Sequence record: PX969468.1
Source: a phage
Direction: 5' to 3' (one strand)
Length of the DNA: 64,000 nt
Shown: positions 1 through 63,400 of the stretch, one piece after another
How positions within the stretch are numbered: position 1 is the first letter of the stretch
Layout: the number at the start of each line of letters is the position of its first letter
The notes under the pieces: model-generated
Seen by the model: only the letters and a program-made list of their open reading frames with translations
What the model was told of the DNA's origin: nothing
The model's database searches: none
Translations under genes and position numbers: made by a program

Positions 1-560
1 GACAAGTTTTTCTCCTCTTTGTCAAGTGCTGCATGAAAAATTTACAAACTGGTATGGTAGCATTTTTGCGGCCCTGTTTACATTCAGGAGTGTATGTATA
101 ACCCTTGTTGTGTGGGCGTTTAGACGTCTGGACGGTCAGAAGTCCGCAGGTTAATATCTAATCTATTGGTCGCTAACTATATCCCCCACAAATAATAAGA
201 AATGCAATTGTTATGTGCGTAAACAGTGACTCATGTTATCAATCCCTGTATGTATCGCCAGTGGTGCGCATAATGGGTATTATGTTAAATTGCCCGTAAT
301 GATAACTATTCTCACAATGATAGGTATTCTCATTCAACCCCGCAAAACAGGTTGCAAATGTTGTGCCACTGTGTGAACGGCCTCACCTATTAATCTGCCT
401 CACTGCCCCGATATTTGAGAATTGTTATAAGAATGAGAAGTATTCCCATTTCGTCCGCCTGGCAGCACTCCAGTCGCTACCGGCTCCTGACAGGGAAGCA
501 CTCCTGTTGGTCAGGTCAAAATCGTGGTATAACTGGGTCTATTCAGATATTTCTGGCTGA

Positions 561-1748
561 CTCTTCAGGTCTGTGTGGGAAAAGCCAACCCCTCCGGCGG
601 CTGGGAGGGGGTCAATTAAAAAATTTACGTGGTGTATGAAGCGCTCTTCAGGTAAGGCATGTATTATGGGATGAAACCCTCTTCAGGCAATGATATTTGT
701 AGGTGTGATATTTGCTGGAGAGCCAGATATGACGGGACTCCCGGCGGGGCAGGGGTAGTACAGACAGGGAAAATATGGGGATGTAGTTGGGTGAATTGAT
801 CAGGCAGGTAGAGTATGGAATATGTTACAAGTATGTTAAATATGGAGGGTGAATATCTGCAGGATTTGTGTGTAAAATCAAAGACTTAAGTAGTGTTGTG
901 GTATTTTCTATAAATAATTCAAGTTTAATAGGTAATATTTGTCTCTATCCACTTTGTGTGGTAAACAAATTCAAATGAGGTTGGTTTACAAGTGTATACA
1001 TAATATACAAATTAAAGATACAAGAAACCCCCCTCCCCCTTCGGCTACCATTCACCTTTTCCTCTGACTGGTACTTAAACACTTATTCAGACTCTTCAGG
1101 TTATCACCCATATACCATATGGCAGTGACTGGTGTCCTCCGGCCCCTCTTTCGTCACCCGTCCGCTTCGCCATGCTAATGCCATAGCCAAATGTTCGGTT
1201 GTTCACCCTGTTCACTCAGGTGTATCTCCATACCCCTTCAAACCGAAGAGAACAGAAAACCCGAATTACTCGGTAAAAGAAAAGAGAAGAACTTAATTTT
1301 ATCAGGATAGGCAAGAATGTCAAGGCATGACTGCTCACTAAACAAGCAAACAGTCATGTGTGGGAGGTAAGTGATTGTGGTGGTGGGAAATTTAGTTGAA
1401 AGATGGGTTATAGGTGCTTCCAGCACTTTAGCCGGGCAGCTAATTGTGTGTCAGTCCAGCGGTTCATCCTCTACTTCACTGAAATCAATGTTCATGGTCT
1501 CTTCCCAACCATCGATCTCAGCACAAGAGTGGAGTTATTTAGGGTTTACTCCCAAAGCCTCAGCAACAGAGTCTATATTTAACACCTCTGGCAGGTATGA
1601 TTCATCGAATTCAAGGTAAATCAGGCCACGAGTGTTGTCAGCTCCACCAAATATTTCTATCTTCATGAAATCTCCTCTGGAAATGAGAGTGTGAACAGGG
1701 TTTTATACGTTCCAATGCACTGGAATTATACACGTTTGCCTCTTCAGG
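561..1748 (+). repeat. Five same-orientation copies of the 9-mer CTCTTCAGG (561-569, 644-652, 679-687, 1092-1100, 1740-1748) in an ORF-poor region
   Basis: Read directly from the sequence. About 0.2 copies per strand would be expected by chance in 64 kb. Region 1-1240 has no convincing ORF with an RBS. Confidence 0.5.
1535..1666 (-). CDS. hypothetical small protein (43 aa)
   Basis: ATG preceded by AGGAGA at 4 nt spacing. Below the ORF-track size cutoff. MKIEIFGGADNTRGLIYLEF... Confidence 0.35.
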   Translation of the reverse strand: MKIEIFGGADNTRGLIYLEFDESYLPEVLNIDSVAEALGVNPK

Positions 1749-28525: not shown

Positions 28526-28984
28526 TTAGAAGTTTGTTTTTACACGTCCCTTTTCATCTACCTCATTGTTAGCTAAAAGCGTTACAAAGTCTGTGAAACG
28601 GACATGAAGAACTCTTTTCTTGTCAAGGTATCCTAAAGCCACCCCTGAAAAATTTAGCATCAAGGGGGCTAAAGAAGCTCTAGCACTGAAATGCTGTTGT
28701 TCTACTCTTCCTACACCCTTAGTGTAGGATGGGTTAAGATTGTAAGTTCTGAATCCCAGTTTTGTTGGAGCTTTAGAATTAAAAACAACTTTATAGCGTT
28801 TCTTACTCAACTTATGCTCCAGGATAAGAATTCCCTTATCACCCTTGATAAGTTGAAAATCTGTAAAGTGCTCTTTTAAGACGAAAGGTAGTGCCAGTCC
28901 CATAGCCTGGCCTCTTTGTACCGCTGTCTCACCAAAAGCTTTTGCATCAGTAAGTTCTTTGGTCAAGTCTATGCTTTTGATCAT
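28526..28984 (-). CDS. hypothetical protein (downstream of methyltransferase)
   Basis: Track ORF overlapping the 3' end of the methyltransferase gene. Confidence 0.45.
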   Translation of the reverse strand: MIKSIDLTKELTDAKAFGETAVQRGQAMGLALPFVLKEHFTDFQLIKGDKGILILEHKLSKKRYKVVFNSKAPTKLGFRTYNLNPSYTKGVGRVEQQHFSARASLAPLMLNFSGVALGYLDKKRVLHVRFTDFVTLLANNEVDEKGRVKTNF

Positions 28985-39104: not shown

Positions 39105-39866
39105 TTACAGTTCCATAAAGTTTTCTACGATGTCAATAAATGTTTTATCAGAGAAAGCGTCAACCGCCCCGTTAAACCAAACTGGGATGCCGCGATCCTC
39201 ATATTGATAAAGGTCGCTACGTGAAATGCCGCTTCCATCTGCACTCTGCGAATCATACTTGTTTACAATCAGTAGTTTTGTGCCTTTACAAGTAGCAGGA
39301 AACAATTCCCAGTTAAAATTAATAACTGTGTTAGAACAACCCACCAGAATCACCATATCATTGCTGGTAAGAGATGTCAATAGGTCATACATGTCTGTAT
39401 ACTTAGGAGCAACCTCACCGAAGAACACCACATTGGGCTTAACCCAAGTATACTTGCCTGTATCTACCTCCGTGTATCCGATATTTTTAATTACATCATT
39501 ACCTTCAGCATCTTCGTAGGTGATTTCAGGCAAATACCCGTGGACATGTAAGATATCTTCATGTTTAACACCAGCACGCTCCAGCAAATCATCTATATTG
39601 GTTGTCAGGTTGATCACACGACCAGACCAACGTGAATACCACTCAGCGATCCGGAGATGTGCAAGGTTAGGATCAACACTGCCCAGAGCTACACGCCGTG
39701 CATTGTAAAAGTCATGCACCTTATAGTAGTTCTTGGCAAAGGTGTGGATGTTACACACCTCATCGATGCTGAAATTCTCCCACATTGCAGTTTGACCAGA
39801 ACGAAAAGTTGGGATCCCAGATTCTGCGCTCAAGCCAGCACCAGAAATAACAATAAGTCGTCGCAT
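39105..39866 (-). CDS. Sir2-family NAD-dependent enzyme
   Basis: ISGAGLSAESGIPTFRSG NAD-binding signature; 253 aa. Confidence 0.65.
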   Translation of the reverse strand: MRRLIVISGAGLSAESGIPTFRSGQTAMWENFSIDEVCNIHTFAKNYYKVHDFYNARRVALGSVDPNLAHLRIAEWYSRWSGRVINLTTNIDDLLERAGVKHEDILHVHGYLPEITYEDAEGNDVIKNIGYTEVDTGKYTWVKPNVVFFGEVAPKYTDMYDLLTSLTSNDMVILVGCSNTVINFNWELFPATCKGTKLLIVNKYDSQSADGSGISRSDLYQYEDRGIPVWFNGAVDAFSDKTFIDIVENFMEL

Positions 39867-39874
39867 AAATGTCC

Positions 39875-40225
39875 TTAGTAGATGTTTTGGTTGATCTCTA
39901 TTCCAAACTTCTTGAATGAGTCAGCAGCAAGCATAAATTTACGAGCCGCTGATGGGTTAGAAGTATGCACGAAAATCTTCACGTTGTCAACTACAGGAGG
40001 CTTACCAAATACAAATTTTTCCTCCAACATAGATAGGCAATCGTACCCTTCAAATACCTCTCCAAGATCGTTGTCCATGTGCCACTCAGAAACGCGCCTG
40101 TAGAGCTTTCCCTTATCGTTAATAAAATCCATAAACTCAGAGGAATTCTTTAGCCAAATAGCATCGGGGATCCCATAATTTGACGGATCTCTCAAGTCAT
40201 CCAGCCACACGATCAACTTCTTCAT
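39875..40225 (-). CDS. hypothetical protein
   Basis: Track ORF between the Sir2-like and RNA ligase genes. Confidence 0.45.
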   Translation of the reverse strand: MKKLIVWLDDLRDPSNYGIPDAIWLKNSSEFMDFINDKGKLYRRVSEWHMDNDLGEVFEGYDCLSMLEEKFVFGKPPVVDNVKIFVHTSNPSAARKFMLAADSFKKFGIEINQNIY

Positions 40226-41157
40226 TGCATATAGTCCTCGTTGTGGAAATAGCAGTCAAGTATCTCACGGCGTTCCTGCTCTAGGAGGCAGTTCCACACA
40301 TCTTCTGTGTAATTGTTACGAATGAAGTTTACCATGCCGTAAAACTCTTCGTCAATACGTTTAAAGATATCATCATCCCAAATCTTCCAAGCTTTACCCC
40401 TCATTACGGCCTTCCGTGCCAAATAGTATGGAGACTTGATCTTCAGCTGCAGATCATAAGGGTAGTAAGGCTTACGAATCATATACCCTTCACCTCTTGT
40501 TTCTGCAGCTAATTCTTTTGCATAGCTGAACGGAATTTCACGCACAGTGTGAGGACGTTTTGCACCAAGGTATTTGGCAATCCCATCTAAAGCTGCTTCT
40601 GGTAGCATTATTCCAGAATCATTATATCTGCAACCTATCAAATATGCGCCATGATCTTCCTGAACAATATGCGGATCTGAAGGGTGACAAATTTCAAACA
40701 TGAATGTCATGTTTTCATGGCCCATAACCTTCTTGATAAGATCTAAATTACCACATTGCTCCTGGATGGTTTCCTTTGCAAGGTTACAATATGGAGAATC
40801 AAGAGACCCGGTTGTTGAAAACAATAGTTCACCTTTATGAGATGATACCACACCAAGGAATCCGTTCTTTTTCTCTACCGCCGTCACAAGTTTATTGTCA
40901 GGCAGGTTGGTGGAGTTTTCTCCCAAATTAAACACTTTTGTGAAGGGCCATGCCACAACATTTCCTTCATTACCGACAACAATGCCTCGGCACTCTAGTA
41001 AACGCGGAGACAAATGCCATAAATTGTTGTAGAATACTTTTCTGGCATATTTGTAGATCTTTAATCCAAGATCTGGGTAATATCTGCTGGTTACAAGACC
41101 TTTGTCAACCAGGTCGTCTGCATTAAAATACTTCATCATACATTCCTCATTTGTCAT
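40222..41157 (-). CDS. RNA ligase-like nucleotidyltransferase
   Basis: Putative adenylylation motif VEKKNGFLGVV (KxxG); sits next to a polynucleotide kinase and separately from the DNA ligase. Confidence 0.45.
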   Translation of the reverse strand: MTNEECMMKYFNADDLVDKGLVTSRYYPDLGLKIYKYARKVFYNNLWHLSPRLLECRGIVVGNEGNVVAWPFTKVFNLGENSTNLPDNKLVTAVEKKNGFLGVVSSHKGELLFSTTGSLDSPYCNLAKETIQEQCGNLDLIKKVMGHENMTFMFEICHPSDPHIVQEDHGAYLIGCRYNDSGIMLPEAALDGIAKYLGAKRPHTVREIPFSYAKELAAETRGEGYMIRKPYYPYDLQLKIKSPYYLARKAVMRGKAWKIWDDDIFKRIDEEFYGMVNFIRNNYTEDVWNCLLEQERREILDCYFHNEDYMQ

Positions 41158-41200
41158 TTTGTCCCTTTATTCTGCCACACAAATAACCTGGTGTCAACAC

Positions 41201-41229
41201 TTGAAATTAACAAAACAGTTAGGTATACT
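41201..41229 (+). promoter_or_regulatory. sigma70-like promoter (TTGAAA-17-TATACT)
   Basis: Hexamers at 17-bp spacing, about 30 nt upstream of the first plus-strand gene. Confidence 0.5.
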
Positions 41230-41257
41230 CTCATTAAAATTAAAACGGAGAGTTACT

Positions 41258-41668
41258 ATGTCTAAAATGCTATATATCGTGCGTGGTCTACCAGGGTCTG
41301 GCAAATCAACACTGGCAAATGCGCTATCTTTAGAAGGTCTGTATCCACATTTTGAGAACGATATGTTCTGGTACGACGATGACGGCAATTACAATTGGGA
41401 TGCAAGTAAAGTAACACTTGCAGCAAAATGGTGCAAAGATAACGTAGAAGATATGATGCGTATGGGCTACGACCGTATCGTGGTAAGTAATACGTTTACA
41501 AAAGAAAAATATGTGCAAGAATATATTGACATGGCGATCAGTCATGGATATAGTTATACCGTGATCGTGGTTGAAAACCGCCATGGTAATAAAAGCATTC
41601 ATGATGTTCCAGACAGGGTTGTGGATCGTATGGAACGCCAGCTTAAAAACTGCATTAAACTTAAATGA
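41258..41668 (+). CDS. polynucleotide kinase-like P-loop kinase (Pnk kinase domain)
   Basis: LYIVRGLPGSGKSTLANAL resembles the T4 Pnkp kinase N-terminus; GGAGAG RBS. Confidence 0.55.
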   Translation: MSKMLYIVRGLPGSGKSTLANALSLEGLYPHFENDMFWYDDDGNYNWDASKVTLAAKWCKDNVEDMMRMGYDRIVVSNTFTKEKYVQEYIDMAISHGYSYTVIVVENRHGNKSIHDVPDRVVDRMERQLKNCIKLK

Positions 41669-41675
41669 GGAATGT

Positions 41676-42230
41676 ATGAAATACTTTGTAACAAGCGACA
41701 CACACTTTCTCCACCAGCGGGTAATGGAGTTCGACTCATGTCAAAAACACAGATCTCAGTATGATCACAATCTTGACAGTATGAATGCGGGAATCATCAC
41801 CAAGTGGAACTCTGTTGTGTCACCTGCAGACACTGTGTTTCACTTGGGGGATATTGCGTGCACTAATGATAAGAATATCAACAAATTGCTTCCAGATGTT
41901 CTAAATATGTTGAACGGACATATTATTCTTGTTCGTGGTAACCATGACACAAGGACGACTGTCAGAATTATGAAAGAGTTCGGTCATGAGGTTGTAGATT
42001 ATTACGAGCTTCGCCACAACAAGAATTTGATCTGTATGAGCCATTACCAGTTTGCAAAGTGGAACAGAAAGCCTCACGGATCAGTCCAACTGTTCGGTCA
42101 TGCTCACGGAACCACACAGCAGTTGTTTGGCAGGCAGTTTGATGTCGGTTGGGATGTGTGGGGGAGACTCTTACCATTAGAAGAGGCATACCGTATTGCA
42201 ATGAGTCTTGCTATTGACAGCGGGGAGTAA
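41676..42230 (+). CDS. calcineurin-like metallophosphoesterase
   Basis: Motifs DTHF, GDI and GNHD; GAGGAA RBS. Confidence 0.6.
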   Translation: MKYFVTSDTHFLHQRVMEFDSCQKHRSQYDHNLDSMNAGIITKWNSVVSPADTVFHLGDIACTNDKNINKLLPDVLNMLNGHIILVRGNHDTRTTVRIMKEFGHEVVDYYELRHNKNLICMSHYQFAKWNRKPHGSVQLFGHAHGTTQQLFGRQFDVGWDVWGRLLPLEEAYRIAMSLAIDSGE

Positions 42231-42277
42231 TCCCTGCTATTTTAAAGAAAATTGCCACACAAGGAGAATCAGGAGAT

Positions 42278-42628
42278 ATGAAAGATGAGGATAAGCTGCT
42301 ATATCTTAAAGTCCCCCTTGAAATACTGTCTATGTCAAAAGTTTTGAATGGCACAACTGGGGAGGTTGTTGTTCTTGACTTATATGACAAGATCGTATAC
42401 TGCTACCTGCACAACTGGTATAAGCTTGGAGAAAATTCACGCTTCACACCCAGCACCAGGAAAATTGCAGCAGATGTTGGGATAAAGAAAACAAAAGCAG
42501 CAGCGTGCGTTAAAACTTTAGAATGTGCAGGAGTGGTTGAAATATCCACACAAGGGAGAGGTAAAAGATGCACATTTTCCAAAGTTTTGCCACCAGAAGA
42601 AGTTATTCGAATGTCAACAACTGGTTAG
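42278..42628 (+). CDS. helix-turn-helix DNA-binding protein (putative regulator or initiator)
   Basis: HTH-like segment RKIAADVGIKKTKAAACVKTLECAGVV; directly upstream of the iteron array. Confidence 0.45.
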   Translation: MKDEDKLLYLKVPLEILSMSKVLNGTTGEVVVLDLYDKIVYCYLHNWYKLGENSRFTPSTRKIAADVGIKKTKAAACVKTLECAGVVEISTQGRGKRCTFSKVLPPEEVIRMSTTG

Positions 42629-42700
42629 ACCAGTAAAAACTTAAACATCTGTACTATAAGGATTTGTATGTTTTATGTTCACTCTGGAGCAGAAGTTAGT

Positions 42701-42785
42701 AACTGTCCGTGATACGGACACTACTGTCCGTCACGCGGACACATCTGCCCGTAATACGGACACTAACTGTCCGTGATACGGACAC
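42701..42785 (+). repeat. Four tandem 21-bp direct repeats, each with a 15-bp palindrome GTCCGT-N3-ACGGAC (iteron/operator array)
   Basis: Repeat cores at 42705-42719, 42726-42740, 42747-42761 and 42769-42783; 21-bp period. Confidence 0.7.
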
Positions 42786-42925
42786 ATAAAGAATATAACT
42801 AAAATAACTAAATAATAAAAAATAAAAGATCTAGTACTTATGGTACTAAAGTACATATACTTAACTTATGTAGAATATACTAGATCCTAAGTACCATGTT
42901 TTAAATTTATTACTTATTATGGGTA
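42786..42925 (+). other. AT-rich block with a 9-bp inverted repeat (GATCTAGTA ... TACTAGATC); possible DNA-unwinding element
   Basis: Strongly AT-rich by eye, directly after the iterons. Confidence 0.5.
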
Positions 42926-43160
42926 GTGTCGGCCCTTCATTGGCACTCGCCTACGAGGGGCGAGATGCCGGGCCTCCATAGTGCACACAATAACAGAAGT
43001 GCATACATGCAGGACTGTTAACATGTGTGGGAACGAAGCGATAGCGCAGGCCAAAGGCCGAGCACTAATGTGGACCACCGACGAAAGCTTGCCAGCGCCG
43101 GAAGGAGTCGGTTGAGAGCCTCCCGCGCGAGTTCGGATAAAGTTTATGTGTGGAAACTGA
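42926..43160 (+). other. GC-rich ORF-free segment; candidate structured non-coding RNA
   Basis: No ORF of 60 aa or more in any frame between 42628 and 43290; abrupt rise in GC; multiple stem-forming segments. Confidence 0.35.
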
Positions 43161-43289
43161 CAAGAAGGACCCTAAATCGCTCCACAGCTATATAAACTAT
43201 ACCAAGTAAGGCAATCGCACCAGTTTGATAGAAAAGCTCGTTACAAAGCGATACAGTGAGTTTTTCTATAACTTGAAGAGGAGGCTGCT

Positions 43290-43868
43290 ATGAGTTCACG
43301 CAAAGATGCCAGTGAAAAGATTGCAAAACGTTATCAGAATGAAGAACAGATGGAGAAAACTTTCAAGTGGAAGCCAGGTTTCCAGCGTAATCATTCTAAC
43401 GCTCGTGATCGTAAGCATCCTGATAAGTGGCTAACACCGCCAAATGATGGCATGCAGGTTGGTGATGAGAAGGAGCTATCACCTGGAAAAGATGGCAACT
43501 ACATTCGCACTAAGGACGCTAGTCCAAAGGATGACAGCTATCTTGTAGATAAGGTTCTTAATGGTATTGATGTAGATGTTGACACTACACGGAACTTTTT
43601 TCTTGGGTGGTATCGCACAGGTTTTTTCGACATCAAGGCCATTCGTCGTGTTTGTGATATTAAAAAGTCTGCATATGATGACGACTCGTTACATCGCACA
43701 CTGAGACAATATTCAGAAAGATATGGTCATCCGGTTATCACTCTTGACGATGTTAACGAAGTGATGTATCATGCAGAGGTTGTTGCAGGCAGATTTGGTG
43801 ATGCATATCTTGATATCCTTTCTGCAAACGATGAGGTAATGTTGAATAAGATTTACTACGAACGTTGA
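43290..43868 (+). CDS. hypothetical protein
   Basis: Track ORF; GAGGAGG RBS. Confidence 0.55.
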   Translation: MSSRKDASEKIAKRYQNEEQMEKTFKWKPGFQRNHSNARDRKHPDKWLTPPNDGMQVGDEKELSPGKDGNYIRTKDASPKDDSYLVDKVLNGIDVDVDTTRNFFLGWYRTGFFDIKAIRRVCDIKKSAYDDDSLHRTLRQYSERYGHPVITLDDVNEVMYHAEVVAGRFGDAYLDILSANDEVMLNKIYYER

Positions 43869-44731: not shown

Positions 44732-45070
44732 ATGGCGGATACAACTAAAAAGCGTCGCCGTAGAGGCAGACCTCTGAAAGAGGAGTCCAACGCCATTCAG
44801 CTAGAGAAGAACATTCTTGATATGAAGGAATCTTTTATAGCGATGGTTCCAGAAGCTCACAAAGTTTTAAGAGAGCTGATGTTGGATCCGAAAACCAAGC
44901 AAAATATTCGTCAAAGCATTGCAGAGTATGTCCTTGATAAGGCAGACCGAATGCAGGAAGAATATGATGAGATGTTTGGTGAAGAGGAAGAGGTGGTAGT
45001 AGAAGAGGCTGAAAAACCAGCACCTTTTATGCCATTTACCACAGAGATACAGCCTGTTGGCAATAGTTAA
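44732..45070 (+). CDS. small basic protein with AT-hook-like KKRRRRGRP segment
   Basis: Start moved to the ATG preceded by GGAGG. Confidence 0.5.
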   Translation: MADTTKKRRRRGRPLKEESNAIQLEKNILDMKESFIAMVPEAHKVLRELMLDPKTKQNIRQSIAEYVLDKADRMQEEYDEMFGEEEEVVVEEAEKPAPFMPFTTEIQPVGNS

Positions 45071-45635: not shown

Positions 45636-45734
45636 GCTAGGTAAGCCCTTTGGCAAGGGCGAGGATTTTTAATCCTGAAAATAGACGAGGTAGTCGTTGA
45701 ATACATAGGTGGTTCGATTCCATCACCTAGCACC
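45636..45734 (+). tRNA. atypical tRNA-like gene (about 99 nt; Lys TTT-like anticodon loop; about 29-nt extra region); possible pseudogene
   Basis: Perfect 7-bp acceptor (GCTAGGT/ACCTAGC), D-arm, T-arm GGTGG-TTCGATT-CCATC, anticodon loop TTTTTAA with a 4-bp stem; insertion too long for a canonical type I tRNA; no full CCA. Confidence 0.35.
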
Positions 45735-55743: not shown

Positions 55744-56202
55744 ATGCTAAAGGTTAAATGTCAAACAAGGTTCAACCTAAAGCGTTTAGATCGCTTCTAC
55801 AAAGAACTTGTGAGACTTGAAAGTAAAACAATAACCTACGGCTTTTATGACGAACCTCACCCGTCAGGCTTAAATATGGCAACATTGGCAGCCATTCACA
55901 ACTTCGGTTGGAACGGGCTGCCTGTTCGCAATTTCATGGAGACAGCCTTTGCATTTCACAGCACTCAACTACAGACCTTGACAGAAAAATTGTTGAGAGC
56001 TATGGCTAGAGGATCAAGTGCAGAGGCTATTCTTAAGCAGATGGGGGACACAGGGGCCAAAGCTATCCAGTTTGTTATTGAGGCTGGTCAGTTTAGTAAC
56101 CCTACTGTTAGTGAGCAGTGGGCACAAGAAAAGGGCTTCAACGAGGCTATGCGGCATTACGATGTGCTGCTTGAATCTGCAACCTTTAAAATTGGACAGT
56201 AA
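55744..56202 (+). CDS. hypothetical structural protein (neck/tail completion region)
   Basis: ATG preceded by GAGGGA. Confidence 0.5.
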   Translation: MLKVKCQTRFNLKRLDRFYKELVRLESKTITYGFYDEPHPSGLNMATLAAIHNFGWNGLPVRNFMETAFAFHSTQLQTLTEKLLRAMARGSSAEAILKQMGDTGAKAIQFVIEAGQFSNPTVSEQWAQEKGFNEAMRHYDVLLESATFKIGQ

Positions 56203-60077: not shown

Positions 60078-62411
60078 ATGGCTACAAACAAAATAGTTGC
60101 CACAACAGTCAACAAGATTGGCTTTGAGATAGAGAACTCCTCCTACAAAAAAGCTGTAGAGAAAATTCGCAGTATTGGGAGGGAGTTCAGGAAACTGGGC
60201 GAGGATTTTAACTCAGCCAACCCCATGAGTAGATGGCAGGCGGTAGCTGTTAAAACCCAGCAGACAATGCAGAGGGTTGCCAGACAGCAATCTCAGGCAA
60301 ATGCTAAACTGCACAGAGAGAGCGTAGCACAGGCCAAGAAAGAGGCTGCAGTAAGGGCTGCAATAGAACGTAGGGAGAATGCGAGACGTAAACAAGCTGT
60401 AGGTAATCTTACCGCTAAAAATCCAGAAATGGCTAGGATGCGTAAGTTCTACCAGCAGCAAGCTAAAGAGGCCAAAAAGGCTGCCAAATCTGCACCAGTG
60501 TCTTACGGCGGTTATAAGCCACCTAAGGCAAGAGTTCTGGCTAATGCTAAAGCTTTCAAATATATCCCCGGTAACCCTAATATGGGTGGTGTGGCTTCCG
60601 ACCCTAATCTTGTGAAAGCTCAGACAGCTGCTATGAATCGTTATCATAGACAGCTAAGAAGGGACGGTAAAGCTGGTATGGATAATAGGCTTATGTCGGA
60701 TCGTGAGGCAAGAAGAACCCACCTCTACAACTCCGCGATAAGACTTTCTGCCAAGTATGGTGCCGGATTCCGTGGAAGCTTGCCAGGATACTCAGAGTTA
60801 GAGTCCAGGTTTGCTCGCGGGGAGATGAAAAAGTCAACCTTTAACGCCCACCTGTCAGCGCTGCAGTCTGGATTTAAAAGTGCCACCAGCCAAACGCTTA
60901 CACTAGGCGATGCCATGAGAGACTTACGTAGATCTGTTATTAATGCAACAGCTGCGTATACAGCTTTTTCTGGATTTGCTGCGGTTAACAGATCCGGTCA
61001 CATGATGGAGGGGGCAAGTGCTGCTCTTACTGCTGTTACTGGAGATCCAAACAAAGCCAACAGTGAGGTTGCGTTTGTCCAGCAAGAGGCTATGCGTCTT
61101 GGTTTTGATCTCAAATCTGGTCTTCAAGGTTACGCCCAAATGTCGGTAAACGCCAAAAACCAGATGACAAACCAGGAAGTGCATGAGCTGTTTTCTGCAT
61201 ATTCCCAGTATGCTGCTGCTTATGGTGCTGATGAGGTAAAATACCAGCGCGGTATTATGGCAATCCAACAGATGCTCGGTAAGGGACAAGTAATGTCCGA
61301 AGAGCTGAAGCAACAACTCGCTGAAGCATTGCCTGGTGCATATGAACCTTTTATCAAGGCCACCAAAGAGGCTTTTGGTCTTTCTGAACTCTCCATGGAT
61401 CAGTTCATGGACATGATGAAGAAAGGTGAGGTTAAAACAGCCAAGATCATGAAGTATGTAGCTAAGTACATGAACGAGGCATCTGCAGCTGGTTATGAAA
61501 GAATGCAGAAGTCTAACGTGCTGGCAGAAAACAGACTGAAAACCTTCATCGAACTGACTCGTCAGAAACTGTTCACCCGTTGGTCTGACGAACTAACAGA
61601 GTTCTATTATACACTAATCCGCACTGGTGAGACTCTGCAATTTGTGTGGGATGCCTCTGGTGATTTTGTTAGCGGGTTTGTGAGAGGCCTTAACTGGGTA
61701 GTTGGTGAACTAAACAATACTATAGTTAAGATCCGCATGTTTTTCCTTGAATGGGGTATTAAATGGGGATTCATAACAGCTAAGACGAAGGAATATTCTG
61801 AAGAGCTTCATGACACCTTTAGCTATGCTAAATGGGCAGGGTTTGCTGCTGCCATCATGCTGGTCGTCAACGCCCTAACAAAAGGTTTTGTCATGGCATC
61901 TATGCTTGTAAAAACCTTTAAATTCCTTAATTCTCTAAGAGGTGCAGCTGGAGCAGCAGGTGCAGCTACTGCAGAAGGATCTGGTGGTGGCGCGGCAGGA
62001 AAAGGTGGAGGTGGCCTCAAGACACCTGGTGGTAAAGTTGGTCTGCTTGGCAAGCTGGGCATTATCGGTACAATATTAAGCGCCGGGGAATTATTTAATG
62101 ACCGTTTCAACCCGCTGAGTGAAAGAAATCAGCAACTGGATACTATCAGCGATATGATTCGCAAAGATATCATATCGGGAGGTAACGGGTTTGTTAATCC
62201 TTTGGACACCTTGCCGGGTGGGACTCTTCCGTTGCCAGGTGGTCCTGGTTTTGCTTCTCAATTAAGAACTATGGAAATGCTACCTTTAGAGATCAGTGAT
62301 GGGAAAATCACGCTTTCCATAGATGAGGGCGAGTTTAGCAAAATACTTGATGCAAAACTTGAGTGGGAGAACAGTAAAGATATCAACTTCATGTCTACCG
62401 ACCTTTGGTAG
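60078..62411 (+). CDS. tail tape measure protein
   Basis: 777 aa, Ala/Gln-rich helical N-terminus, Gly-rich tract (GAAGAAGAATAEGSGGGAAGKGGGG), directly after the chaperone pair. Confidence 0.7.
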   Translation: MATNKIVATTVNKIGFEIENSSYKKAVEKIRSIGREFRKLGEDFNSANPMSRWQAVAVKTQQTMQRVARQQSQANAKLHRESVAQAKKEAAVRAAIERRENARRKQAVGNLTAKNPEMARMRKFYQQQAKEAKKAAKSAPVSYGGYKPPKARVLANAKAFKYIPGNPNMGGVASDPNLVKAQTAAMNRYHRQLRRDGKAGMDNRLMSDREARRTHLYNSAIRLSAKYGAGFRGSLPGYSELESRFARGEMKKSTFNAHLSALQSGFKSATSQTLTLGDAMRDLRRSVINATAAYTAFSGFAAVNRSGHMMEGASAALTAVTGDPNKANSEVAFVQQEAMRLGFDLKSGLQGYAQMSVNAKNQMTNQEVHELFSAYSQYAAAYGADEVKYQRGIMAIQQMLGKGQVMSEELKQQLAEALPGAYEPFIKATKEAFGLSELSMDQFMDMMKKGEVKTAKIMKYVAKYMNEASAAGYERMQKSNVLAENRLKTFIELTRQKLFTRWSDELTEFYYTLIRTGETLQFVWDASGDFVSGFVRGLNWVVGELNNTIVKIRMFFLEWGIKWGFITAKTKEYSEELHDTFSYAKWAGFAAAIMLVVNALTKGFVMASMLVKTFKFLNSLRGAAGAAGAATAEGSGGGAAGKGGGGLKTPGGKVGLLGKLGIIGTILSAGELFNDRFNPLSERNQQLDTISDMIRKDIISGGNGFVNPLDTLPGGTLPLPGGPGFASQLRTMEMLPLEISDGKITLSIDEGEFSKILDAKLEWENSKDINFMSTDLW

Positions 62412-62515: not shown

Positions 62516-63400
62516 ATGCAAAGTAATATAGTTGATGAAAAAGACCTGTACAAGCCTCAAGAGGTTAAATCTCCAAAGGCTGAAAAGGCAGAGCAGCAAA
62601 CCGAAAGCGATGTAAAGTACACTATGTTTGTCAGCGGTCTTAACTATGGCGGTCGCAACATAGAAATGAAGGGTAAAAACTTTACTAACGATCTTGCCAT
62701 TATCTTCGATCAGGTTGAGAATTACTCTTTCAAACATTCTGTTGATAAGACGGGGTTTGCGGTGGAAGATAAATCTACCCTGTCAGACCACGCTGTAATT
62801 AAAGATGGTGTATTTTCTTTTACCGGTAGGGTAAATACATCTCCACATATAATCTATGAGCAAAACTACATCGATAGGAATACTGACTCTAAAAACCCTG
62901 CAGCATCTATGCGACCAAGTGCTGCACTGGAGGCTTTGACTGAGATCATTAACAAGCGACAGTTGGTTTCTTTGGTTACCGAGGAGAGACTTCTTGAGAA
63001 CTACATCATAACCAGCCTTTCTGCCAGCAAGTCTGTTGGTGAAGGTGCTGCAATGGTTTTTGATGTAGAACTTACAGAGTTCCGCACATTCTACTTGAAC
63101 AAAGTTGTTAATGCAACTGTATACAGCAATCCTAAGAAAGTAGGCAAGACCCAACAAAAAGGTGCTGTCAACGACTGTAAGAATGGTAGTAACGTAGGTA
63201 ACAAGAGGGACACAGGAGCATTCGCAGACACCGCATCCACAAATGCTGCAGAGGAGTGGCAGCCATATAAATCTATGATGTGGACAGATGAAAACGGTGT
63301 TACCCAATCGGCTGCGGATTGGTATTACCAGGAATATGGAAGACCTTCTACCATAGTCCCATCTGAGCAGGGAAACTACGACAAAGTTAACGGGAAATAA
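62516..63400 (+). CDS. hypothetical tail/baseplate-region protein
   Basis: Start moved to MQSNIVDEK... (GGAGAGG RBS) downstream of a TTGTAA/TACAAT promoter-like element; start coordinate may be off by 1. Confidence 0.5.
   Translation: MQSNIVDEKDLYKPQEVKSPKAEKAEQQTESDVKYTMFVSGLNYGGRNIEMKGKNFTNDLAIIFDQVENYSFKHSVDKTGFAVEDKSTLSDHAVIKDGVFSFTGRVNTSPHIIYEQNYIDRNTDSKNPAASMRPSAALEALTEIINKRQLVSLVTEERLLENYIITSLSASKSVGEGAAMVFDVELTEFRTFYLNKVVNATVYSNPKKVGKTQQKGAVNDCKNGSNVGNKRDTGAFADTASTNAAEEWQPYKSMMWTDENGVTQSAADWYYQEYGRPSTIVPSEQGNYDKVNGK

Follow-up and report, generated by a model that had tools for sequence, protein, structure and literature searches.

The replication origin of bacteriophage lambda contains four dyad-symmetric direct repeats of ~19-21 bp, which are bound by dimers of the winged-helix-type N-terminal domain of the O protein. 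This system and, next to it, the iteron plasmids such as P1 appear to be the closest functional analogs of the locus described here, which lies within a 64,000-nucleotide stretch of phage DNA (sequence record PX969468.1; hereafter, the window) and comprises a gene for a small helix-turn-helix (HTH) protein, an array of four direct repeats, an AT-rich block and a folded non-coding element that we denote X. Judged by its sequence, the window belongs to a Vequintavirus, i.e., an rV5/FV3-like phage of Escherichia coli: over the 3 kb around the locus, identity reaches 99.5% with Escherichia phage vB_EcoM-ECP26 and 96-99% with ~120 Vequintavirus records (rV5, FV3, slur16, Murica, and others). The members of this genus are lytic myoviruses with genomes of ~137 kb; the rV5-like phages rank among the coliphages isolated most often, and cocktails for therapy and biocontrol make wide use of them.

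We propose, with a probability of roughly 45%, that the locus is an iteron-type replication origin with an initiator consisting of the DNA-binding domain alone. A preliminary description of the same DNA had offered a candidate replication origin or operator array. Comparison with related replicons supports well the premise that these two possibilities share, namely, that the repeats are the sites of the HTH protein, and lends partial support to the origin, with the operator standing as its rival. In the library searched, no paper turned up on the array, on X or on the plasmids that share X with the phage, nor did anything relevant on a Vequintavirus origin, packaging (pac) site, satellite or transcriptome.

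Results

The repeat array and the adjacent HTH protein

The array consists of four direct repeats of 21/22 bp on the plus strand (42700-42721, 42721-42742, 42742-42763, and 42764-42785), the first of which begins 72 bp past the end of the HTH gene. With starts at 42700, 42721, 42742, and 42764, the spacing is 21, 21, and 22 bp, in agreement with the period of two helical turns noted before. The 17-bp palindrome TGTCCGT-N3-ACGGACA, with cores at 42704-42720, 42725-42741, 42746-42762, and 42768-42784, is perfect in copies 1 and 4 and carries one mismatch each in copy 2 (...GCGGACA) and copy 3 (TGCCCGT...), so that the earlier statement that each repeat contains the palindrome was slightly overstated. 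At two mismatches or fewer, 0.09 matches per 64 kb are expected by chance, and 5 or more matches were obtained in none of 100 shuffles. Across the window and the remaining 73 kb of its closest relative (~137 kb altogether), neither the palindrome (at most two mismatches) nor the 8-mer ACGGACAC occurs outside the array, save one two-mismatch match at 28588 that is most likely due to chance.

Among relatives, the diversity of the array is 0.016, compared with ~0.10 at third codon positions. Variation within the repeats is limited to the left half-site and the central 3 nt, the right half-site, CGGACAC, showing none. Most genomes carry four copies, two carry three and one carries two, the reduction being an in-register deletion of 21 or 42 bp each time. 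In some GenBank records, the array is marked merely as a 'repeat_region'. Three independent assemblies (Logan contigs L013, L019, and L020) end inside the array or at its edge, and GenBank record MG065672.1 (phage A141) begins exactly at its first base; such ends may reflect either repeat copy-number heterogeneity in phage populations or an assembly problem.

The spacer between the HTH gene and the array (42629-42699) is composed of two parts, a nearly invariant one (42629-42680) and a hypervariable one (42681-42699), such that diversity in the ~20 bp just 5' of the array reaches 0.123, at or above the level of synonymous sites. The invariant part holds a weak promoter-like site on the minus strand (42681-42653; TGAACA-17-TATAGT, 9/12 matches; TGGACA in FV3), which lies ~20 bp from the first repeat and points toward the 3' end of the HTH gene; an antisense transcript could start there. 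On the plus strand, a scan for sigma-70-type promoters detected no site between 42650 and 43250. Elsewhere in the phage, promoters are near-consensus (our scan; PMC3606486).

The HTH open reading frame (ORF; 42278-42628, plus strand, 116 amino acids), which the preliminary description had singled out, is a real gene because its diversity at codon positions 1, 2, and 3 (0.020, 0.029, and 0.096, respectively) shows purifying selection. Its product matches the Pfam families HTH_36 (E = 1.5e-5) and DUF6945 (E = 2.9e-6), in both cases at about the threshold. The protein founded the family phrog_12838, which bears the label 'replication initiation protein', and it matches, more weakly, 3 more PHROG families with the same label (E values from 8e-6 to 7e-3 overall). 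The AlphaFold2 model (predicted local distance difference test score, pLDDT, 82.6) comprises one compact winged helix, with an N-terminal helix and a beta-hairpin. The nearest predicted viral structures are DUF6945 proteins of lytic phages, several of which are named replication protein or replication initiator, and the further structural matches are ordinary transcription factors. Thus, according to the model, the fold would be that of a sequence-specific DNA binder of the type used by initiators, and it does not by itself settle the function.

Homologs were sought with tblastn among 50,697 phage records, in a word-indexed search of 5.8 billion proteins, and in a HMMER scan of 1.84 billion representatives. 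These searches retrieved only Vequintavirus copies (at least 85% identity) and a few generic HTH_36 winged-helix proteins, so that no function could be transferred from distant homologs. Some of the remote winged-helix relatives are fused to GIY-YIG or T5orf172 nuclease domains. Scans of IMG/VR with peptide patterns and DNA patterns for the HTH gene and for the junction between the repeats and the AT-rich block gave no match. Just upstream of the HTH gene, on the plus strand, lies a sigma-70-like promoter with an extended -10 element (42214-42243; TTGACA-18-TATTTT, 10/12 matches, TG present), annotated as P76 in the RefSeq record of rV5, which implies expression by the host RNA polymerase.

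The most informative comparison is with L025, a divergent 137-kb Vequintavirus-like contig in which the module occupies the same position, between the same phosphoesterase gene and the gene for a 192-amino-acid protein. The L025 protein (143 amino acids) belongs to the same family and has the same fold but only 27% identity to its counterpart in the window (E = 3e-7), and it also matches phrog_8102; its gene is preceded by an equivalent promoter site (11/12 matches). Directly after this gene, L025 has a different set of palindromic repeats, ATCTGATRCAAATATGTATC, spaced by 22, 33, and 55 bp, and beyond them an AT-rich block and a conserved X. Because protein and repeats were exchanged together between the two lineages, they look like a cognate pair. 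Given that the repeats are also unique in the genome and strongly conserved, the array probably represents the binding sites of the adjacent HTH protein, a prediction from sequence comparison.

The AT-rich block and element X

The AT-rich stretch of ~140 bp noticed previously measures 135 bp (42786-42920), begins at the base right after the last repeat and has a G+C content of 18.5%, against 42.8% for the window; we regard it as a putative DNA-unwinding element. Within the window, no 100-bp stretch is richer in AT or less stable than 42786-42885, whose nearest-neighbour free energy is -101.7 kcal/mol (window mean, -132.6; standard deviation, 5.8; runner-up, -110.9), ~5 standard deviations below the mean duplex stability. 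The block contains 8-9-bp repeats, ATAACTAAA, at 42795-42820, two GATC sites (42828 and 42883), several GTAC motifs ~9 bp apart, and a 9-bp inverted repeat (GATCTAGTA at 42828-42836 and TACTAGATC at 42878-42886) that had been reported correctly; no sigma-70-like promoter was detected on its plus strand. With a diversity of 0.024, the block is almost invariant even in the most divergent type-A relatives, and together, the repeats and the AT-rich block form the best-conserved DNA of the locus, with a diversity four to six times lower than that of synonymous sites.

The AT-rich block is followed by X (42921-43135, plus strand), a G+C-rich (59%), structured non-coding element of 215 bp with a diversity of 0.04-0.05 that is left un-annotated in most records. 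Within X, we delineated hairpin 1 (42931-42974) and a core domain (43021-43135), in which helices 43044-43047/43125-43128, 43056-43059/43072-43076, and 43077-43082/43107-43112 surround an invariant stretch of 24 nt, GAAAGCTTGCCAGCGCCGGAAGGA. All 19 predicted pairs of the core are 100% paired over 14 distinct sequences, 4 of them with compensatory changes, a result that no shuffle or register shift approaches. The substitutions include the conversion of a core helix from ACCGAC/GUCGGU in the phage to GCUGCC/GGCAGC in plasmids that carry a homolog of X (see below), an independent change in another helix of phage EduardKellenberger, where C became A and its partner G became U, and the replacement of two G-C pairs of hairpin 1 by U-A between phage and plasmid copies. 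Because paired substitutions preserve the helices, X is a real folded element, be it an RNA or a DNA strand. Furthermore, two sets of G.U wobbles would turn into A.C mismatches if the opposite strand folded, and therefore the fold belongs to the plus strand, the sense of the flanking genes.

Several other identities of X were considered and rejected. X is not a known RNA: no Rfam family was matched at the gathering score, and 3 sub-threshold matches at E<=10 fall mainly over the repeats and the AT-rich block. Nor is it a protein-coding gene, given that its variable positions lack 3-base periodicity and that the paired substitutions between phage and plasmids alter the putative peptide; the small ORFs annotated inside X in some records (e.g., rV5 ORF78) are probably spurious. 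An origin of X from the host was dismissed because a search of 5,426 E. coli genomes yielded matches in 4 plasmids only and none on a chromosome. A 5' helix predicted from a single sequence (42915-42923/42975-42983) was likewise discarded, as its variation is not compensatory.

A covariance model of X finds exactly one copy per replicon and, accordingly, no second copy in the large non-coding region of the phage. Blastn searches of the phage collection yielded Vequintavirus matches only, and a scan of genome contigs for the X core gave none. In metagenomes, there were 110 matches to an 18-mer of the X core, of which 104 have no extended X context; the 7 extended contexts that were checked (6 from metagenomes and 1 viral-contig duplicate) are of the phage type in 5 cases and of the plasmid type in 2.

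The remainder of the non-coding region (43136-43289, plus strand) comprises a variable part (43136-43225; diversity 0.082), into which the un-annotated G+C-rich element runs on, and a highly conserved one (43226-43289; 0.020). The latter, which is conserved in L025 as well, contains a 12-bp inverted repeat (43228-43239/43258-43269) and the ribosome-binding site of the next gene.

Plasmids sharing element X

A blastn search of E. coli genomes and plasmids revealed that the X core is 84-86% identical to un-annotated DNA in circular E. coli plasmids of 13.2-13.7 kb. The set includes L021 (NZ_CP020521.1), L022 (NZ_CP178698.1), L023 (NZ_CP035869.1), L024 (NZ_CP043822.1, a 39.6-kb record, made up of three such plasmid units in a trimer), and CP148565.1, along with the metagenome contigs L043 and L051; homologs of X were identified in L021-L024 and in both contigs. 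The family is present in 4 of the 5,426 complete E. coli genomes. Its members encode a major capsid protein, a tape-measure protein (25% identity to the product of 60090-61808 in the window), a Dit-like tail protein (51% identity to 62588-63202), a 152-amino-acid protein (45% identity to 55750-56172), small HTH proteins, and, as the sole replication-like gene product, an initiator-like protein of 288-306 amino acids with an HTH_36 N-terminus that matches replication-initiator, lambda-O-like and DnaD-like PHROG families (best, phrog_270; E = 5e-12). No terminase or portal gene is annotated on these plasmids, and MOB-suite assigned them no replicon type. On the strength of these sequences, they look like an undescribed satellite or a reduced relative of rV5-like phages. 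The possibility that the initiator is split in the phage, with the HTH protein as the N-terminal half of an O-like protein and the 192-amino-acid product of the next gene as the C-terminal half, was rejected because no similarity links the latter to the plasmid initiators in their C-terminal part.

X lies in the sole large non-coding region of the plasmids (2.3-2.9 kb), where the order on the strand of X is iterons, AT-rich palindromic repeats, X, strong promoter-like sites, and the operon with the initiator-like gene, small ORFs intervening between the promoter-like site and this gene. The iterons comprise at least 6 palindromic 19-bp copies spaced by 23 bp, lie 0.6-1 kb ahead of the operon promoter, from which X separates them, and differ between plasmids together with the initiator-like protein. 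The repeats of the phage are absent from the plasmids. The succession of specific iterons, AT-rich DNA and a constant X thus occurs 3 times, with 3 different iteron/protein specificities, and identity between phage and plasmids is 85% for the X core, as against 25-51% for the proteins they share. Apart from a 24-nt match at 410-433 of the window, no non-coding nucleotide similarity found between the plasmids and the window comes near X in size.

This 24-nt stretch is 96% identical to positions 519-542 of L021, is present in all the plasmids and could be another shared cis element. It is located within window positions 1-1100, the edge of a large ORF-free region that was named 'non-coding' (2.6 kb) in the description of rV5 (PMC3606486). 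In 1-1100, the motif TGTGTGGG is followed by hairpins (e.g., 105-140 and 565-612); the same motif also punctuates X and the non-coding DNA of the plasmids.

Genomic context

Upstream of the HTH gene, on the plus strand, are genes for a metallophosphoesterase (41676-42230) and a kinase-like ATPase (AAA_33; 41258-41668). The strand switch, which the preliminary description had placed at the locus itself, actually lies at ~41160-41257, between the minus-strand RNA ligase gene and the AAA_33 gene, 1.5 kb upstream of the repeats. The cumulative GC-skew analysis proposed at that stage put the minimum at ~41 kb, that is, at the strand switch. Since the skew tracks gene orientation, it is uninformative on the origin, and we dropped it as an origin marker, consistent with the rV5 genome paper, in which GC and AT skew revealed only effects of transcription direction and the origin was not located (PMC3606486).

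Around the strand switch is a cluster of RNA-repair-type genes (39105-42230), 3 kb from the tRNA genes. It encodes, besides the metallophosphoesterase and the AAA_33 protein as its polynucleotide-kinase-like member, RNA ligase 1 (40222-41157, minus strand), a small protein with a receiver-like domain of the cyclic-phosphate-processing type (39875-40225) and two Sir2-like proteins, the genes for these last three and for the ligase being on the minus strand, upstream of the switch. In other genera of the Vequintavirinae, the same genes form a single co-directional block, which indicates an inversion in Vequintavirus. In Seunavirus SSE121, Mydovirus, and phage TH18, the phosphoesterase gene belongs to another, co-directional block and has no HTH homolog next to it, so that, at this position, the module is confined to Vequintavirus.

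Downstream, 661 bp without an accepted gene separate the HTH gene from orf192 (43290-43868, plus strand; 192 amino acids; phrog_12226), to which no function is assigned and which we treat as context rather than as a component of the locus, even though it flanks the module in both phage lineages. Farther 3' follow small genes, seven tRNA genes, the spanin genes, and the large terminase gene. One of the small genes (44732-45070) encodes a 112-amino-acid protein (phrog_3330) whose ends are strongly basic (N-terminal, KKRRRRGRP) and acidic (C-terminal), with a helical part in between; speculatively, on the grounds of composition, it might be a small-terminase candidate. For the tRNA-like gene 45636-45734, ARAGORN reads a four-base anticodon (atcc) and the Rfam tRNA score is 35.5 bits; it is annotated variously as tRNA-OTHER, as tRNA-Lys, or not at all. 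Eighteen GenBank records marked UNVERIFIED (MG0656xx) and labelled 'Campylobacter phage' (Campylobacter jejuni) are 96-97% identical to E. coli Vequintavirus in this region, which makes the host label doubtful.

Discussion

The origin interpretation draws on several features of the locus: the phased palindromic repeats, far more numerous than expected by chance and unique in ~137 kb; the purifying selection acting on the repeats and on the AT-rich block, although neither is coding; the exchange of the module in L025; and the lack of any consensus-like promoter on the gene strand in the AT-rich block or the repeats. Additional, indirect support comes from the extreme instability of the AT-rich block abutting the repeats, from the relatives of the HTH protein, remote and structural, most of which are annotated as phage replication initiators, and from the presence of the same layout near the only initiator-like gene of the plasmids, which must keep an origin of their own somewhere in their large non-coding region.

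The mechanism that we envisage would begin with early production of the 116-amino-acid winged-helix protein from its host-type promoter. Dimers of this protein would then occupy the four dyad-symmetric repeats, whose spacing of two helical turns places all sites on one face of the DNA, to form a compact complex similar to the O-some of lambda. The strain of this complex would open the adjoining 135-bp AT-rich block, where the primase-helicase and the polymerase of the phage, both encoded elsewhere in the genome, could start synthesis. X, on the plus strand, may be the constant part of such an origin, acting either as a priming or loading signal on the unwound DNA or as a structured transcript.

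Several observations weigh against an origin. The protein of 116 amino acids corresponds to the DNA-binding part only: judging from its length and the structural model, it has no second, helicase- or loader-recruiting domain, in contrast to lambda O and the plasmid proteins, and it lacks a counterpart of the part of O (~300 amino acids) that recruits P-DnaB. In PHROGs and RefSeq, 'replication initiation protein' is an annotation and not an experimental result. The winged-helix domain is widespread and occurs also in regulators and nuclease fusions, so that homology alone is no sign of a role in replication. Neither DnaA boxes (TTWTNCACA) nor the consensus for IHF (WATCAANNNNTTR) is found in 42200-43300. 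T4, T7, and similar large lytic phages use promoter-dependent origins without iterons. In L025, the AT-rich block adjoins X and is ~160 bp away from the repeats, an arrangement that would suit an AT-rich promoter or leader for X just as well. Finally, the non-coding region of the plasmids may hold several unrelated functions, which weakens the parallel.

The most serious rival, which we judge less likely, is an operator or roadblock array, whereby the HTH protein, as a regulator, would coat the phased operators and control read-through or a promoter in or near the AT-rich block, thereby setting the expression of X, orf192, the small genes and the tRNAs, with the AT-rich block serving as a promoter/UP-element region or a leader. 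The array is indeed situated between a gene driven by an early promoter and a co-directional gene block, and no terminator was found between them; the protein has a transcription-factor fold, and its co-variation with the sites is equally expected for repressor-operator pairs. The G.U wobbles place the fold of X on the gene strand, as for a transcript, and in L025, the AT-rich block stays with X. The weak leftward site 20 bp from the array is a further point in favour. However, no sigma-70-like promoter on the plus strand overlaps or adjoins the repeats, and the 9/12 promoter-like site within the AT-rich block of L025 is not above chance (2 such sites found versus 2.7 expected). Likewise, in the plasmids, the distance between the iterons and the operon promoter, with X interposed, would be odd for an operator. 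The protein would, moreover, have a single target cluster in the whole genome, and a roadblock needs neither the extreme propensity to melt nor the near-invariance of the 135-bp AT-rich block.

An improbable special case of operator control is that X is an independent non-coding RNA gene and that the repeats and the AT-rich block are its regulated promoter region. X remains constant while the repeats and their binding proteins are swapped across 3 contexts, it is single-copy in each replicon, the support for its structure is strand-specific, and its core is far more similar between phage and plasmids than the proteins they share. Yet no conserved promoter is present at a fixed distance from the start of X and no terminator follows it, the lack of an Rfam family leaves it with no functional precedent, and a folded DNA strand accounts for the same covariation.

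Very unlikely, in our assessment, is a pac site made up of the repeats, X or both, with the winged-helix protein as the missing small terminase and with X shared by the plasmids because they are packaged by the phage. Nu1 of lambda, a protein of the winged-helix type, binds to repeated elements, and what other helper-satellite pairs (e.g., P2/P4) mainly have in common at the DNA level is the packaging site, just as X dominates the non-coding similarity here. In addition, no small terminase has been identified in rV5 (PMC3606486), and the genomes are circularly permuted and headful-packaged (PMC8407724, PMC13211470). Against this reading speak, however, the plasmids' lack of the phage repeats, the compensatory changes in X, which imply a selected folded single strand unexpected for a site recognized as a duplex, the distance to the large terminase gene (4.4 kb, past the tRNA and spanin genes), and the protein itself, which has neither the small-terminase architecture of a DNA-binding domain plus a helical oligomerisation core nor a terminase-like fold.

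Returning to the origin, a broader and more doubtful proposal than the origin itself is that X represents the constant, initiator-independent half of a modular origin that the phage shares with satellite-like plasmids. The iterons and their cognate protein would provide the specificity, and X would prime or load, or else would allow the plasmid to tap the replication or packaging of the phage. If true, this would amount to a new origin architecture and to a new helper-satellite system in a commonly isolated group of coliphages.

X and the plasmids may ultimately matter more than the repeats, and much of the interest of the locus comes from them. That X occurs both in the phage and in plasmids carrying capsid and tail genes of a phage suggests that Vequintavirus has a satellite or relative that has so far escaped notice, and X itself points to a novel structured element, made of RNA or DNA, whose function neither replicon could do without. 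As to the phage, an origin at this site would explain the control of replication in a large lytic myovirus that departs from the T4/T7 pattern, and a defined origin with a cognate protein swappable between lineages would aid the engineering of rV5-like phages. The experimental handle is compact, consisting of one protein, four sites, and one AT-rich block.

Comparison with known systems

The likeness to the lambda origin extends to the presence of at least three dyad-symmetric direct repeats with an easily unwound AT-rich stretch directly beside them, and, as in the lambda group, the number and specificity of the repeats vary between related phages along with the initiator, here a predicted pair. 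Unlike in lambda, the repeats of the phage lie after the gene and not inside it, the AT-rich block is more than three times longer and is followed by a conserved folded element, and the host of the module is a large lytic myovirus with its own primase-helicase. Moreover, our searches brought out no significant sequence similarity of the phage protein to lambda O itself, its matches being to the generic HTH_36/DUF6945 and PHROG families given above and the O-like PHROG matches belonging to the plasmid proteins.

With the theta-replicating iteron plasmids (P1 oriR, pSC101, R6K, F, and RK2), the locus shares phased iterons, a predicted cognate winged-helix protein and an AT-rich neighbour and, with P1 oriR in particular, GATC sites inside the AT-rich part. 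Unlike these plasmids, it has no DnaA boxes or IHF consensus, and, according to the model, the phage protein has one winged-helix domain, not two. The plasmids identified here, with at least 6 iterons of 19 bp at a spacing of 23 bp and a gene for an initiator-like protein of ~300 amino acids, fit the iteron theta type well. The phage protein weakly matches RepA_N initiators, known from Gram-positive plasmids and the Vibrio satellite PLE (PDB 4pql, 5kbj, 4pt7, and 4pta), but gives no match to Pfam RepA_N, and the C-terminal, host-specific domain of RepA_N proteins is absent. Another structure considered, PDB 4RO3, is the N-terminal domain of an uncharacterised Vibrio cholerae protein (DUF6945) and thus offers no clue to function. 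Thus, given the single-domain initiator, the location of the repeats outside the gene, the lack of DnaA boxes, and the extra folded element, the locus does not belong to either the lambda type or the iteron-plasmid type.

For X, the relevant precedents are single-strand initiation signals, such as the G4-type sites (among them, the G site downstream of R1 oriR), and transcript-primed systems, such as ColE1 RNA II and T4 oriF/oriG. Unlike a member of any of these groups, X shares no sequence similarity with them (blastn of the phage collection, Rfam). The analogy that we propose is instead one of form and position: like these signals, X would be a folded element of a few hundred nucleotides, active on one strand and placed beside the duplex that is opened first.

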